The translations under genes were made by a program, and so were the position numbers. The notes under the pieces were generated by a model. It worked only from the letters and a program-made list of their open reading frames with translations. It had not been told where the DNA came from and did no database searches. From Octopus vulgaris (lineage: Eukaryota), in contig OX597834.1 in the NCBI GenBank assembly GCA_951406725.2, positions 42,842,001 through 42,906,000 of the forward strand: 64,000 nt of DNA, written 5' to 3'. Of this stretch, positions 1,570 to 59,035 are shown piece after piece (position 1 is the first letter of the stretch; every line of letters begins with the position of its first letter).

Positions 1570-2239
1570 CTTCGAAACGTAGAGTAGATGAAACCATAGC
1601 GACTGAAGAAGGGTTTTTTCTTTGTGTTAATTGTCGTGTACTCTATTTTTTTGTTGTTTAAAAAAATGTCCAGTTCCTTGGGTTTGTGTCTATGTTTTCG
1701 TTTCTCATTGTGTTCGACGTCTGTTTGGTGTCCTGTACTCATATATGCGTGTATATGTACATGTAGAGGTAGGTACGTACATATATGTTTATATATGTGC
1801 ATATGTTTTATTTATTAATATATATATATATATATATATGTTTCTCTGTGTGTGTATGTGCTAGTAATTTGTTATAAAATCAGGCAGTACAAGTTGAATT
1901 TAATCCTACCTATAAAGACAAGGGTTCCCTGAAAAGTGCGAATATCTTCGGTGAATCAGTTATTAAATAAGGAATTAAAAAAAAAAATGAAGAAACAGCT
2001 AGATTACTGATGATGAAAAATTCCCGTTGTTGTAATACCATCGTACAATATTAATTTTTGGTAATAATCTAGGTAGCATGCAGCTTCTAAAACAGAATAT
2101 CGGGGTGATTCTTGAAGCTGTGAAACTAGCCATGGCTGCCTCCAAATAGATGGTTTCTTTATAATCAAGTTCCTTTCACCAACTGAGTAGAACTTTCTGA
2201 CATCCCTCAGTAAAACTCTGGAGTACCATTCTGATCGCA

Positions 2240-2770
2240 ATGTCACTCAAGGTTTGTTGGCAGGAATTCCAGGACACGCCAGTCATATCCACAAGGCCGT
2301 CAATTGTTCGGTGACGGTTCTCCAAGACCAGTTCATGAATTTTCAAGATGTTTTCATTCGTTCTGGACATCGACGATCGATCTGTACGAGGTTGGTACTC
2401 AGGCGAAAAGTGACCCTTCCTAAAGCGTGGAAACCACTCGTAAACTTGTGCTTTGCGTATGGCGGCGTCCCCGTAAGCTGTTTGAAACATGACAGCTGTT
2501 TTGGCCACCGTTTTCCCACAGCATCTGACAGAATTTCACGGAAGCACACTGTTCCTTCGATTCAGCCATCACAAAACTCCACGAACAGGGGACAAACACT
2601 GCAAAACAAAAACAAAAACGCGTTACGTGGCAGTACAACACTCCTGGACGACGTCCGTCGGGAGACGGATAGCTGAGCGTCGTATCATGTGGTCACTAGC
2701 GGTGGAAGCTTGAACTACAGCGCGCTTGTCCCACAGAGAACTTTTCCAGTTACTTTCGGGTTTCCCCTAG
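2240..2770 (-). mobile_element. Mariner transposon 5' fragment: candidate TIR plus frameshifted N-terminal HTH region of the transposase
   Basis: ATG at 2569 (-) gives MAESKEQCASVKFC, then after a frameshift KTAVMFQTAYGDAAIRKAQVYEWFPRFRKG...PRTDRSSMSRTNENILKIHELVLENRHRTIDGLVDMTGVSWNSCQQTL, a typical mariner (Mos1/Hsmar-like) N-terminus. Mariner-like TIR candidate aggggaaacccgaaagtaactggaaaag near 2741-2769. The catalytic domain is absent. Confidence 0.9.
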
Positions 2771-5384: not shown

Positions 5385-5783
5385 ACCAGTCTCCCGCATT
5401 TGGCCACGCCGCTTCACTCGACGAGGGTTCCACTTGATCTGATCAGTGGAAGAGCTGCTCGTGAAATTAACGTGCAAGTGGCTGAGCACTCCACATTCAC
5501 GTGTGCCCTTCAAGTAATTCCCAGGGAGAATCAGCGTGACACAGAATGTGACAAGGCTGGCGCTTTGAAATACTGGCACAACAGAAACAGGAAGAAAGAG
5601 AGAGAGAATTTTGTGGTGAAAGAATACAGCAGGGTTCGGCACCCCCACCCATCTACTGCTGGAGCCTCCTGGAGTTTTATTTGTTTTTACTCAATAAACA
5701 CTTATAACGCCTGGTCTGGGAATCGAAACCGCGATCTTATGACGGCGAATCTGCTGCCCAGACCACTGGGCCATTGCGTCTTC
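5385..5783 (-). mobile_element. tRNA-derived SINE, head H1 + tail T2
   Basis: Minus-strand head gacgcaatggcccagtggt...ggtttcgattcccagacc (Pol III A/B boxes), as at 29486 and 33664; tail gatcagtggaagagctgctcgtgaaattaacgtgcaagtggctgagcac shared with 36250 and 37765. Confidence 0.85.
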
Positions 5784-6323
5784 ACACACACACACACACA
5801 TACATATGTTTACACAAGCACCTAATCGTCTCACTCATAAATAATAGAAACGCACTTTATTGTACAAAACGCGCACGCACGCTCTGTCTGTCTCTCTCTC
5901 TCTCTCTCTTACACACACACATACACACATGCACAAACGCATTAAAATGCAGACATGTGCATATGAAATACACGCCGATGCAATCACATTTGTTGCAATC
6001 TCGCCTCACGTATAAAAGGACAATTCGAATAGTTTTATTCTTTTCGCTCATCCACACACACAGCGCCACACACGTATTCACAGGTGAGTATATTGTCGAA
6101 GATGTGCGTAGCTGCAACTTGTATGAGCTTATCTCTCTTCCCTCACACTCTCACTCCTTCTCAGCAAAGACCAAAGCCACACACGCGTGCGCGCGAACGT
6201 ATTATGTATTAAGATACGTGTATGCATATATGTGTATTTATATCCGTGTGCAAACCTGTGTGTATTAATATGTGCGTTTTTCGTCAGGAGAACCACACTG
6301 ACCGAATAGAATACCCATCAACA

Positions 6324-6364
<41 letters not shown>

Positions 6365-6615
6365 CATATCTGTGTGCGTATATATGTATATATATGTACA
6401 TATATACTCACACATACATATATATATGTATATAATATTAATTACATATATATGAGTGTGTGTTTACATATATTTATATGCATGCATCTATACATCTCTC
6501 TCTCTCTCTCTCTCTCTCTATTTATATATATATAAATATGCATATATATGCATATTAATATGTATGTATATATATTTACATGTGTACGACTGTATATGGA
6601 GATAGGTTGGTGTAT

Positions 6616-6646
<31 letters not shown>

Positions 6647-7406
6647 CACACACATACACACACATATACATAAAGAGAGAGAGAGAGAGACAGAGAGAGA
6701 GAGGGAGTGCAGAATGAGAGATTGAAAAATATATAAGTTGAGAGACAGACACAAAGAGAGATAGTGTGTGTATATCAATTCACAGATACACCCACATCAT
6801 AAAGATATATTAATATATAAATACATATACACAGATGCATATATATATGTAAATACATATATATCTATATCTATATCTATATATATATACATATGTACAT
6901 ATATATACATATATATGATGTCTTAATATGGCCATAGACTATATATAGCATAGACTAACTGAATTACAGAACAATCCAAATTATATATATATATTACAAT
7001 AAAATATCTATTTCTTTTTTTCGTCTTGAATTATTTTCGAGCTATCTCAGTCTCTGTATTATATTAGGTTACAACGCTCCAAACCCAGATTAGAGAACGT
7101 TCTCAATGATTGCAAGTTTACAATGGATTGCTGTTGTATTTTCATATCTACCTTCATGGACACACGCACACACACACACACACATACAAACACGCACACA
7201 CACTTGCAAACACTTGCTCACATAGAGACACAAATGTGTAGTATTTACAGTAACGTACACTCATATCTATACATCAATATATGAATATGTAAACATACAC
7301 ACACACACGCACTGACACACACACACACACACACAGAGACATACAGGCACACACACACATATTAAATATATATGTTTATATATCTATAAGCACATGCATT
7401 TGTGTG

Positions 7407-7459
<53 letters not shown>

Positions 7460-7471
7460 TACATATATATG

Positions 7472-7518
<47 letters not shown>

Positions 7519-7628
7519 CATTTATATATATATACATACATATATATATAGACGTACATCTGTATCTATCTCAAACTGTTTCTCTCTCACTCACTTACAT
7601 ACATGCATACATACACACACACACACAT

Positions 7629-7661
<33 letters not shown>

Positions 7662-8438
7662 ATATACATGTATCATACTAATGTATATATGTGTATATAT
7701 GTACTTATGTATGTATTTATCTGTATAAATATAAGCGTGTGCATATGTTTTTTTTTTTTGTGCGTGTGTGTGTTTGTGTGTCCGTGCGTGTGAGAGACTT
7801 GTCTACACTCACCGTCAGACCCACAACACACCACATATGAAAATTACTCCCGCAGCCCGTCTGTAATTATTAATTTAAGATCAATTCAAGATATCTCGAA
7901 GCATTTTCTTGACAATACCGTACTGAACTTTATTATATCTAGACTAATTTTTTTCTGCTAAAATTAGCTGAAGAAATAGTAAAGTATAGCATTATAGTCT
8001 AGAATATATGCCAAATGGTACCAACAAAAGGAGGAAGCAGCAAAAGTGGAGAGGAGGAAAGAAAGGGACGCAATCGATATTTCAATAAGAACTAACATAT
8101 ATATATGATCTCATTTATTTATGCGTGTAATTAAAACGGTGTATAGAAATAGATCTTCTTTGATTGAAAATACTCCTCCCATACTTAGCACTCCATGTGT
8201 GTGTGAGTGTGTGCCTGTGTGTGTGTATATATATATAAATATATATATATATATGTGTGTGGGGGGGGGAGCGTGTGTGCATAGAAATACACACAGACAA
8301 ATTAAATATGCGTACTAGATATTGATGTGTGTTAATCTGAGCCTGTGTGTCTGTGTGTCCGTGCGTCGTTTCTGCATTTATGTCGATACACGTATGTTTG
8401 TGTGTGTGTCTGTGTGTGTGTATATATATCTATCTATC

Positions 8439-14039: not shown

Positions 14040-14642
14040 TATCTAAGTGTTAAACTGAAATTCGATCCCACAACGCTACCGTTGAAAATCATGGAAATTG
14101 GTTTCTGATCGAGAAAGCGAAAACACATTTTAAAAATGTGTGTTTTCAAAATTTGATTTCTTTACAAAATCACAACCGCGTACACAAACGAACTGATGCA
14201 AAAATACACACAGATACACACACATACACGACGCACCCACTTACACATATGCACACAGAATCGAACAGAAATGCACGCACAGAGACACAGACACACAAAG
14301 AGACACTCACATGCATAAACATGTAAATGAATGTATATATAACATAAAGAAAAGCTTACAATGGTGTACCTGTGTAGTAAGAAGTTTACTTCCCAACCAA
14401 CAGGTTCCGGGTTCAGTTCCACTGCGTGGCAACTGAGATAACCATATGTTTTAATATAACCTCGAATGGCAACCAAGGCCTTATGAATGTGTATTAGAAA
14501 AACACATTTATAAATTTTAATTCTTAATATTACAAAGTATAATTTTTATTCTTAATTTTTAATTCTTAATTTTAGCTTTAATGCTTAATTGTATTGCTTT
14601 TCTTTAAAAGGATATAAAATTAGATATATAATATTTTGAAAT

Positions 14643-14754
14643 AGAACCTGAAGATGTGTTGAAATAATTGTAAATCTGACGATTGCATATATGTATTCAT
14701 ATATGTATATAGGTATACAGTGTAATCTTCCATTACAGAAACACGTGTAGTTCT
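14643..14754 (+). ncRNA. Type I hammerhead ribozyme motif, intact core, long loop II
   Basis: agaac-CTGAAGA-tgtg[75 nt]taca-GAAA-C-ACGT-G-TA-gttct: stem I agaac/gttct, GUA cleavage triplet, palindromic loop III. Confidence 0.75.
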
Positions 14755-15075
14755 TCATATTTGATAAGTATAAGTTTTAACTAAAGTAGGATATAATTAA
14801 TGAAGTATGTTATATAACCTGCTGGTAATTTTGATTATATCCTTTAAATATTATTATTTCGCGATGTGCAAACTGATACTGTGAGTTTACTGTCAGATAT
14901 GCTCATTAGGTTCTTTTTGTATTATCTGAAATAGAATACGAACATATCTATTAATCCCCCAAAATTGAATGAATATATATATATGTGTGTGTGTGTGTGT
15001 GTTTGCTTCTGTTTGTCAACTTCCATCGATTGCCAACCGATGTTGGTGTGTTTACAACCCGAAACGTAGGGATTC

Positions 15076-33962: not shown

Positions 33963-34080
33963 AAAGATTAAAAATATCCACCACATTATCATCATCACTA
34001 CCGCAAACAGCATTTCGATCAGCCATAAATACATTATCAGCTCCAACACACATACACACACACACGCGCGTATGTGTGGA

Positions 34081-34524
34081 ATCGATGGATGGATGTCATT
34101 ATTCAGTTTTATTTCGAGATTTCTCACCAATAGAGAAAGAGCCGGTTTCTAACCTACATCCATTGGTCCTTCATTAAAATTTCAACATCAAGGGTATTTT
34201 TGTATGTATTCATGTAGCTTTTTATGATTTGTCTCTTTCTATCTGCTTACCTGTATCTCCTCCTCCTCCTCCTCGTTTTGTCCCATTCTGTTCGTACACC
34301 GCATCTCACTCGCTCACTATCTTTGTGTACATCCATCTATCCATCCATATATACATACATATATATATATATCTACCCCTTTTGATGTTTGGGAATTCTG
34401 TGATGTTTTTTCGGCTGACGAGTACGAGCCATCTGTATTCACTGCATTTTTTGTAGCTTATTAAAGATGTCCTCGTACGAAACGATCGTACCGAGATTTT
34501 AATCCATTCTTGTTGCTTTTTCCT

Positions 34525-34559
<35 letters not shown>

Positions 34560-34721
34560 CAAATAACAAATCATACAAATCTACATGTATACTTATAAAA
34601 ATACCCTGTTGTTGATGTTGAAATTTCAATGAAGTACCAATGGATGTAGGTTAGAAACCGGCTCTTTCTCTATTGGCAAGAAATCTTGAAATAAACTGAA
34701 TAAAGGCATCCATCCATCGAT
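34081..34721. mobile_element. Long inverted-repeat cassette (~150-bp arms) enclosing a hammerhead motif
   Basis: Arms ~34081-34232 and ~34566-34721, including a perfect 41-bp block ccaatagagaaagagccggtttctaacctacatccattggt and its reverse complement. Confidence 0.85.
34409..34496 (+). ncRNA. Type I hammerhead ribozyme motif, canonical intact core
   Basis: tttcgg-CTGACGA-GTACGAG[43 nt]CTCGTAC-GAAA-C-GATC-G-TA-ccgaga: all conserved core nucleotides present, 7-bp stem II starting G-C, GUA triplet with predicted cut after 34490. Confidence 0.88.
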
Positions 34722-34759
34722 AACATACATACATATACTGTATATATATACATACATAC

Positions 34760-43199: not shown

Positions 43200-43505
43200 T
43201 ATATTAAGAAAAGGAATTCCAACCTTGTCTGATTATCACGTTTTATTTACAATCTTAATATGATATAATATAATATAATATAATATAATATCTGTCAAAA
43301 ATTGTGAAGCATGACTGTCACCACTACTACATGAACCTGAAGATTGCAGAATTTAATGCATGAAAGTACTAGTTCAATCAGAATGAACATTTAAAATTCT
43401 ACTATTTTTTATTTTATTATATTATATTATCTTATATTATATCATTATAAGATTGTAAATAAAACGTGAAAATCAGACAAGGTTGGAATTCCTTTTATTA
43501 ATATA
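43200..43505. mobile_element. Inverted-repeat cassette (~90-bp arms) enclosing a hammerhead motif
   Basis: aaaaggaattccaaccttgtctgattatcacgttttatttacaatctta (left arm) versus taagattgtaaataaaacgtgaaaatcagacaaggttggaattcctttt (right arm); arms continue inward as (TATAA)n/(TTATA)n. Confidence 0.88.
43332..43376 (+). ncRNA. Minimal type I hammerhead ribozyme motif
   Basis: tgaac-CTGAAGA-t-tgca-gaatttaa-tgca-t-GAAA-GTAC-TA-gttca: 5-bp stem I, 4-bp stem II behind a T-T mismatch, palindromic AGTACT stem III. Confidence 0.75.
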
Positions 43506-57485: not shown

Positions 57486-59035
57486 TATGATATAATGCTA
57501 TCCATTGCGAATAATAACATATTTGCTGCTAGAAAATAATGTCTATCGATTCAGGCACAAATTCTGTAATTCTATAAGTGCCACCTCATATATGAGACAG
57601 TTTATCATACACACGTAGTAAAGTGGGCAAGCTTCAGAGTCGTGACAATTGCATCAGGAGTTGGAATCTTGGTGAGGTTTACGAGTGACAATTTTATCCA
57701 TATTGAGGCAGCAGTTGTATGATTTATTTATCGGCCATTAAAAATCGTCCTGTAATTATATTTCGATGGGAAATGCTTATCTAAAAGAGACAAAAATTAC
57801 TTGCCTACGTTAGTTGTAACATATAAAAGGAAAAGGGAGCGAATCATATTATTTTCGTATATCTCTAGTTATGTACGTAAGTATACATTTGAACGCGTGT
57901 GCGCATGTTTATGTATAAATACAAACACACACACACACACACACAAATTCATGCATATATAGATGCATACATGTATGCATATGTATATGTAATCACGATT
58001 TATTACCGTTAAGAATAACAATTTAACTGTTAATTACTGTTGCAGCATATTGATTAATTTCACATAATAAGCGTAAGTAATTCGATATAATAAGCAATCA
58101 TTAATTCTTAACAATAATGATGTTTATTTTCAATTAGTTACACATCTTTCATATCAATTCTAAATAAAGCAAAGGTTTTAACCCACAATGAGTATTGATC
58201 AGATTCAATAGCGACAAATCCCTTGATGAGAAACGAAACCGGAACCCGCTTTCTTAAAATGCCCACGTACAAGCGCGATGACTAAAGCCAGCGGATGGCC
58301 TTTCACTATGCAGGCAACTAATAATTAATGCTGATTATTATGCTCGCCTAAACATTAATGAAGGAAATAAAGACGACAAAACAGCGCTTATCAACGAGAA
58401 GGCCAAGAGAATTAAGTTATTGCGTTATCAACATTAATTGACTTCGCTTATCGCTTGTGCATTTACCACTATCTGTCGAAATTCGTTAGGAAATGCGAAT
58501 AGAAATAAGGCGGCGTGGTGTACCGTATTGCAAGGTGGTGTGTAATGATGTAAGTTGTCATGTCGTAGTGGTGATGTGGTTGGAGTGACGCGGTACCGTA
58601 GAAAGGAAGACGGAAAATAATGTAAGAAATTAAGGAGGTTATGTTGTTTTGTTTCATTTTATCAATTCATTGCCCGGAAATATTCTTTTTCAAACATGGT
58701 AGTTTTTCACTTTTACTTCCATTTTCATTCTCACCCTCTCTCGTCTCTCATTCTCTCTTGTTCCTCTCTGCTTAGACACACATAGAAGCGTACAAACATG
58801 AATACTGATACACATATTAATACATACACACATGCATATATATATATATACACACAAACACATGTCTGTATGTGTATGGGTGCGTAATTCATTGTGTGTG
58901 TATATACACACACAGAGACACATAACCCATTTATATATATATGTGTGTGTGTGTGTGTGTATAGATATATATATGTATATATTACTGTATATATACATAT
59001 ATGAATGTATCTATATATATATGTATATAAATGCG

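Follow-up and report, generated by a model that had tools for sequence, protein, structure and literature searches.

A hammerhead ribozyme from the end of a Penelope-like element, likely inserted by chance between older inverted LINE 3' ends in Octopus vulgaris

We analyzed a stretch of 64,000 nucleotides from Octopus vulgaris (contig OX597834.1; hereafter, the window, in whose positions all coordinates are given unless a locus is named), in which a hammerhead ribozyme lies between two long inverted arms. Sequence comparisons make it very likely that this hammerhead is the terminal-repeat ribozyme of a Penelope-like element (PLE), and that it came later, by chance insertion, to lie between older inverted 3' ends of a LINE. 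The features of the locus are listed in Table 1.

Table 1. Layout of the inverted arms, the PLE piece and its hammerhead motif, in window positions
Feature	Position	Strand	Remark
Left arm, assigned to the 5'-truncated 3' end of an old RLE-type LINE	34070..34242	-	CATC/CATA-type tail pointing outward
Single-copy spacer, decayed simple-sequence DNA	34243..34345	.	1 genome match for 34250-34345
(TA)n microsatellite, left of PLE target	34346..34369	.
Last 156 nt (3' pseudo-LTR), assigned to a young Hydra-clade PLE, 5'-truncated	34370..34525	+
Type I hammerhead	34409..34496	+	every core element as in the original prediction
Hammerhead stem I	34409-14 with 34491-96	+	one G-U
Hammerhead core CUGACGA	34415-21	+
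Hammerhead proximal stem II, 7 bp	34422-28 with 34472-78	+
Stem II extension, 5-bp second helix	34430-34 with 34465-69	+	predicted
Stem II distal hairpin	34442-46 with 34452-56	+	predicted
Hammerhead GAAA	34479-82	+
8-nt perfect palindrome, stem III region	34482-34489	+	A-U and C-G around GATC
Hammerhead cut site	after A34490	+	predicted
(CA)n(TA)n microsatellite, right of PLE target	34526..34556	.
Right arm, sister of the left arm and likewise a copy of this LINE 3' end	34557..34732	+

As the original prediction had stated, all core nucleotides and stems of the hammerhead are found at the positions that it named; the CUGANGA core, the GAAA, a NUH triplet and stems I and II are all present. 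A strict type I descriptor detected this one site on both strands of the 64 kb, compared with 0.04 sites per window in 100 block-shuffled windows, and no shuffled site had both a stem II of at least 7 bp and a stem I of at least 6 bp. Between its two strands, the proximal stem II contains 43 nt, which are predicted to fold into a further helix of 5 bp and a distal hairpin. The Rfam scan suggested in the original prediction yielded 8 matches to E=10 in 34050-34740, none of them to a hammerhead model, and no hammerhead was found among the best 150 of the 460 matches from a broader scan, probably because of the 43 nt between the proximal stem II strands. The word 'canonical' used for this motif is accordingly overstated, and the palindrome that had been ascribed to the GATC loop does exist but comprises the entire 8-nt stem III region.

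In the predicted fold of 116 nt, stems I and II had pair probabilities of 0.95-1.0, and stem III had a pair probability of 0 as a monomer. The active monomer fold was computed at -22.0 kcal/mol and the monomer minimum at -26.4 kcal/mol, and a double-hammerhead dimer was the cofold minimum at -58.8 kcal/mol. The ribozyme is therefore predicted to be a poor cutter as a monomer and to reach its active fold as a double hammerhead joined through the 8-nt palindrome, a combination that fits the low, dimer-dependent activity described in the available part of PMC4209133. The link to dimer cleavage drawn in the original prediction is supported by this predicted minimum and by the retention of the palindromic stem III.

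The PLE piece that carries the hammerhead covers positions -121 to +36 relative to the predicted cut, is bordered by microsatellite on either side, and is 98.7% identical to the 3' end of a full PLE copy in locus L061; its private changes amount to a single substitution and a shortened run of T. Since 34370-34525 matches the 3' end of coding PLE copies, the suspected link to Penelope-like terminal repeats is borne out, and the window copy is, by these alignments, a short 5'-truncated PLE insertion. A genome search with 34375-34525 returned 1053 first-look candidates, of which the 40 scored showed 98-100% identity, and an exact 26-mer of the piece had 293 matches in the 2.8-Gb genome (0 for a control 26-mer). 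At other loci the match to the window was limited to 34370-34525 and the adjoining microsatellite. These copies share a common body upstream, with variable 5' break points, and run straight into the coding element; downstream, they either finish in (TA)n or continue into a 5' UTR that they have in common.

The full copy in L061 consists of a partial pseudo-LTR, a 5' UTR, an ORF of 1072 aa, a 3' UTR of ~1.2 kb, a pseudo-LTR and (TA)n; its predicted cut sites lie 4722 nt apart (the unit length of a ~4.7 kb repeat). A second uninterrupted ORF, of 1071 aa, was found in L108. A circularly permuted copy in L108 was considered and discarded, as the permutation is only apparent and reflects a gap of Ns in the assembly. 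The single ORF encodes a reverse transcriptase (RT) followed by a C-terminal GIY-YIG domain, with no CCHH, and carries the motifs RIRWR, DKT, YRDD, CxCX5C, YVG, CxxC-E and N..CxH in both copies. Pfam matched GIY-YIG on the ORF C-terminus with an E of 1e-4, above the cut-off, whereas Pfam applied to the entire ORF and a profile search against the PDB both gave no match, RT included; the RT call therefore rests on the YRDD motif and on comparison by eye with published Hydra proteins. Two Asn-rich inserts of ~160 and ~220 aa (22% and 35% Asn) interrupt the ORF, which outside them aligned at 36-39% with eight unnamed database proteins of ~700-770 aa.

According to the available part of PMC8557442, the Hydra clade is diagnosed by a RWK-like motif, DKT, a CxCX5C linker, GIY-YIG without CCHH, and CxxC/CxH near the end. 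This family has RWR, and a subfamily at 84-85% has RWK. From the motifs, compared by eye with the published supplement, we assign the parent to the Hydra clade. Its unit of 4722 nt exceeds the usual size of Hydra elements, which are generally <3 kb, a figure that is descriptive and not diagnostic in the same available text (PMC8557442). The 3' end of the family is covered by contigs of three presumed RNA runs, and some of these contigs span the predicted cut, although strand, level and cleavage are not readable from them. As a separate observation, the first ~200 residues of an Octopus sinensis ankyrin-repeat protein model (P0019) are 66% identical to the N-terminus of the PLE ORF, and represent either an exonised PLE piece or a gene-model error.

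The two arms, described in the original prediction as long inverted arms flanking the hammerhead, are indeed 86.5% identical over 178 columns (34070-34242 versus 34557-34732), and the region 34060-34740 folds with z = -26. Among 1331 genome candidates, the best full-length matches to the arm were 82-89% identical. Other arm copies are preceded, on the same strand, by the decayed end of an ORF that contains a CCHC knuckle and the endonuclease motif RPD..E..D, and the homologues of this LINE ORF are 674-1162-aa proteins carrying RVT_1. Reciprocally, of 12 loci retrieved with the LINE protein, 8 (the query locus among them) have the arm downstream of it in the same orientation. On the basis of the upstream endonuclease motifs and this reciprocal linkage, the arms are identified as 3' ends of an RLE-type LINE, which, from motif resemblance, we take to be R4/Dong-like. 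Both outer arm ends run into microsatellites. Dong-R4 elements are listed as abundant in Octopus vulgaris in Table 1 of PMC13282606.

In some copies of the arm family (L054:1395-1517, L045 and L034), the last ~110 nt are parted from the LINE body by (CATA)n and are sometimes tandem; this ~110-nt end forms a hairpin with a GAAAC-CGG motif and bears a faint likeness to a hammerhead. The idea that the arm is itself a decayed hammerhead found no support: one copy had an intact-looking core, but the intact-core pattern had only 3 genome matches, in a family whose protein has 54,988 first-look genome candidates.

The two window arms have 10 derived sites in common, compared with at most 6 in any of 561 pairs from 34 other copies, and they group together with tree support of 100/88. 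No inverted partner was present within ~1.5 kb at any of 28 other arm loci, 6 of which contained extra arm copies on the same strand. The sister status of the window arms, together with the lack of inverted partners elsewhere, points to their origin by local inverted duplication.

The original prediction had proposed that arm, ribozyme and arm together form a new class of non-autonomous mobile element, and had suggested searching the genome for arm and ribozyme separately. The symmetrical layout is the sole point in favor of this proposal, which we regard as scarcely credible. No arm was present in any of 69 hammerhead loci (40 in list order and the 29 loci L002-L030, some overlapping) examined out of ~300 copies, and an exact-match adjacency pattern had a single match in the genome, the window locus itself; the absence of arms from these loci and the single-copy spacer indicate that the composite is not a mobile unit. 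Moreover, arm and hammerhead each have their own autonomous-type parent. The arms are an abundant independent repeat and inverted pairing was absent at the 28 other loci, which is the very situation in which the original prediction would have seen the nesting as chance. A non-LTR retrozyme was likewise considered and set aside, as the window has one copy of this hammerhead and no tandem array, and the other copies are joined to a PLE body.

The relative ages of the parts are consistent with this separation. The arms differ at 12 of 154 sites (7.8%), compared with 1 private substitution in the PLE piece, where ~6 would be expected if the arms were of the same age (P about 0.016, a comparison that rests on one substitution and on assumed equal rates). 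The ~8% divergence of the arms, set against an almost unchanged PLE piece, suggests that the arms predate the ribozyme. A contig from another study spans 34138-34323 with 0 differences. Public contigs from 4 of 24 listed runs were short and repeat-swamped, and none extended across the locus; since they stop at microsatellites, no pre-insertion (empty) allele was seen.

We further considered whether the locus might be transcribed and retained for a host function, its RNA forming a double-stranded stem with a self-cleaving loop that serves as a source of small RNA or in RNA turnover. A transcript of the locus, if made, would form a long hairpin according to the folding model, whose stability is very high (z -26); the hammerhead core is intact, and one run guessed to be RNA contained 0.30 of the locus words, versus 0.15-0.16 in the other such runs that contained part of them, although these words were not placed on the locus. 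However, an intact core is expected of a young copy, as 37 of 48 copies are identical over 34409-34496. Within the arm context, the predicted pair probability falls to ~0.1 for stem I and is 0 for stem III, no partner ribozyme lies nearby, and no gene-like ORF was evident in the window (introns not modelled). Retention for such a function is thus extremely unlikely, and at this solo locus the ribozyme is likely an inert passenger.

The positions at which copies of the family end were scored at 40 loci taken in list order from the search with the 26-mer. From the predicted cut, 24 of 48 copies end at +29 to +42 and the other 24 at +152 to +161; none of the 48 ends at the predicted cut itself, and nearly all ends are in (TA)n. 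A first set of copies gave 19 short and 17 long ends among 36 informative rows. Rows were dropped in 2 of 38 cases (locus-edge artefacts) from the first set and in 1 of 49 (a deletion removes the GAAA) from the 40-locus set. In head-to-head pairs with both ribozymes scored, one short and one long end were found in 18/18 (9 + 9), and similar site pairs are visible in sister subfamilies. The two end sites (~37 and ~161 nt past the cut) lie ~124 nt apart, and both are in or beside TA-rich patches, by which the exact ends are blurred. In the available part of PMC11167929, two internal RT start sites produce a PLE tail of 30-40 bp, and hammerhead cleavage is not needed for PLE insertion in vitro. 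By analogy, we infer that this octopus family may likewise use two internal RT start sites, with a tail of ~124 nt.

The complex locus C9 (about 84.175-84.184 Mb) has two short ends, yet its outermost ends are at +161 and +37. There, L061:1-2697 versus 5648-8322, and L016, show ~1 kb of host flank repeated in an inverted arm with 99% identity, and the inverted left arm terminates in another ribozyme copy, which is truncated and bears the +161 end. Either the PLE may have driven an inverted duplication of its flanking DNA, or the arrangement may be an artefact of the assembly. If genuine, flank copying of this kind would in principle allow the window arms, too, to have been made by the PLE insertion through inverted copying of flanking DNA, so that the nesting would be causal and not due to chance. 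C9, in which ~1 kb of the right-hand flank recurs in the inverted left arm, offers a precedent, and the window arms are sister copies; nevertheless, they are 7.8% apart around a nearly unmutated PLE piece, and the duplicated flank at C9 is accompanied by a second PLE end, which the window locus does not have. We therefore consider a causal nesting very unlikely.

Under the preferred reading, a chance insertion of the PLE, the LINE 3' end would have come first, followed by its inverted duplication and then by arrival of the PLE in the spacer's (TA)n. Judging from PLE biology, the protein of the parent PLE would have nicked the (TA)n target; reverse transcription would have been primed within the PLE's own RNA, ~36 nt past the point of ribozyme cleavage, and presumably halted after 156 nt. 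In the parent PLE, the ribozyme likely processes tandem transcripts.

A protein search (121 matches) recovered related PLE groups at about 96-100, 91, 84-85 and 63-64% identity. A hammerhead was present in 13 of 16 related stretches that were fetched, upstream or downstream of the ORF depending on the place, and all 13 combined a long stem II with a self-complementary stem III region (ACGATCGT, ACAATTGT, ACGATTGT and ACATATGT). This self-complementarity is preserved in subfamilies A-D, with all cells paired in the 8 rows counted, which were selected from 41 distinct sequences, are related to each other and were scored on a structure hand-drawn from the window copy; the divergent hammerhead families D-G aligned poorly and were omitted. 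Over the whole structure, 89.5% of cells in the 8 rows pair, versus 31-52% when slid. The percentage paired and the covariation score exceeded those of shuffles (0/500), but the count of two-sided changes did not (221/500); such changes were seen at 4 pairs, one of them in stem III. Further long-stem-II hammerhead families were observed beside PLE copies at L002:1762-1873, L065:7300-7410, L116:6031-6120 and L123:1879-1995, with mostly self-complementary stem III regions, and the long-stem form thus seems widespread in the genome.

Other elements were noted in passing. At 14630-14769 (+; core 14648), a hammerhead-like motif combines a very long stem II with an 8-nt palindromic stem III and is probably the end of a different PLE family, and a compact Hydra-like hammerhead motif at 43319-43391 (+; core 43337) belongs to a repeat that is also present in L074 and L086 at 92-94%. 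A decayed Hydra-like PLE ORF fragment lies at 57561-57832 (-; tblastn E about 1e-5 to 1e-7). The fragment at 2176-2535 (-) resembles a transposase N-terminus, presumably of the mariner type. At L066:4216-10000, copies of this PLE family are adjoined by several of a different PLE, assumed by us to be Neptune-like, whose linker is rich in cysteine and whose GIY-YIG contains CxxC.

Earlier publications already describe solo hammerheads derived from truncated PLEs, PLE ends in inverted orientation, and the occurrence of the Hydra clade in octopus. In the openly accessible literature, we found nothing on octopus PLE hammerheads beyond Craig et al. (PMC8557442), no PLE hammerhead with so long a stem II, and no bench study of the Hydra clade. 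The window locus is ordinary, a truncated retrotransposon end within older repeat debris. Its parent family, with a hammerhead shape missed by Rfam and intact young copies, is of moderate interest to specialists in PLEs and ribozymes, and the sharp pattern of one end of each kind, together with a tail that is three- to fourfold as long as those published, is relevant to how PLE insertion is completed and to the purpose of the ribozyme. A broader proposal, which we put forward tentatively and rather doubt, is that the family combines an undescribed hammerhead with a stem II module (the conserved distal hairpin as a putative tertiary contact or binding site for an element protein), obligatory paired priming at ~37 and ~161 nt, and copying of ~1 kb of flank. 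If true, insertions of this family would naturally record how PLEs synthesize the second strand and form inverted ends.

Both kinds of repeat at the locus can be compared with known systems. RLE-type LINEs, here presumably R4/Dong-like, have the same CCHC knuckle, PD..(D/E)-type endonuclease upstream and microsatellite tail as the arm family, of which the window holds only ~170 nt of 3' UTR, twice and head to head. The insertion ends resemble those of Poseidon PAc of Anolis, which, in the available part of PMC11167929, likewise has two ends downstream of the cut, never at the cut, and AT-rich targets; however, the octopus end sites are ~124 nt apart compared with 30-40 in Poseidon PAc and, unlike in that element, lie in or beside TA-rich patches similar to the target and precede the start codon (+209).

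With the Hydra clade, including Hydra-1_Obim of Octopus bimaculoides, the parent element has in common the single ORF with RT and C-terminal GIY-YIG, the motifs and the lack of CCHH, as well as a hammerhead near the 3' end, a (TA)n target and inverted 5'-truncated partners, as far as described in the available part of PMC8557442. By the same source, Hydra-1_Obim is a different family (709 aa, 2507 bp and an 8-nt loop II). Loop II measures 3-10 nt in all 26 Hydra rows of its File S2, in contrast to the 43-nt stem II insert of the octopus family, and the only rows of that file with a long loop II are two for spike-moss PLE-X1, both flagged there as deviating. Non-LTR retrozymes are also short non-coding units with a type I hammerhead and PLE-derived, but, according to the portion of the preprint available (bioRxiv 10.64898/2026.07.22.740005), they form tandem arrays, which are absent at the octopus locus. 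The metazoan PLE hammerheads of the pseudo-LTRs, as presented in the available part of PMC4209133, have the same type I topology, long helix II and tiny palindromic helix III, and occur, as here, mostly as single truncated copies with some close pairs on opposite strands. A dimer requirement was likewise proposed for them, and dimer cleavage of PLE hammerheads is the subject of a 2017 paper according to the available text of a review (PMC6765202). The octopus helix II differs from that of the metazoan PLE hammerheads in PMC4209133 by its internal loop, second helix and distal hairpin.
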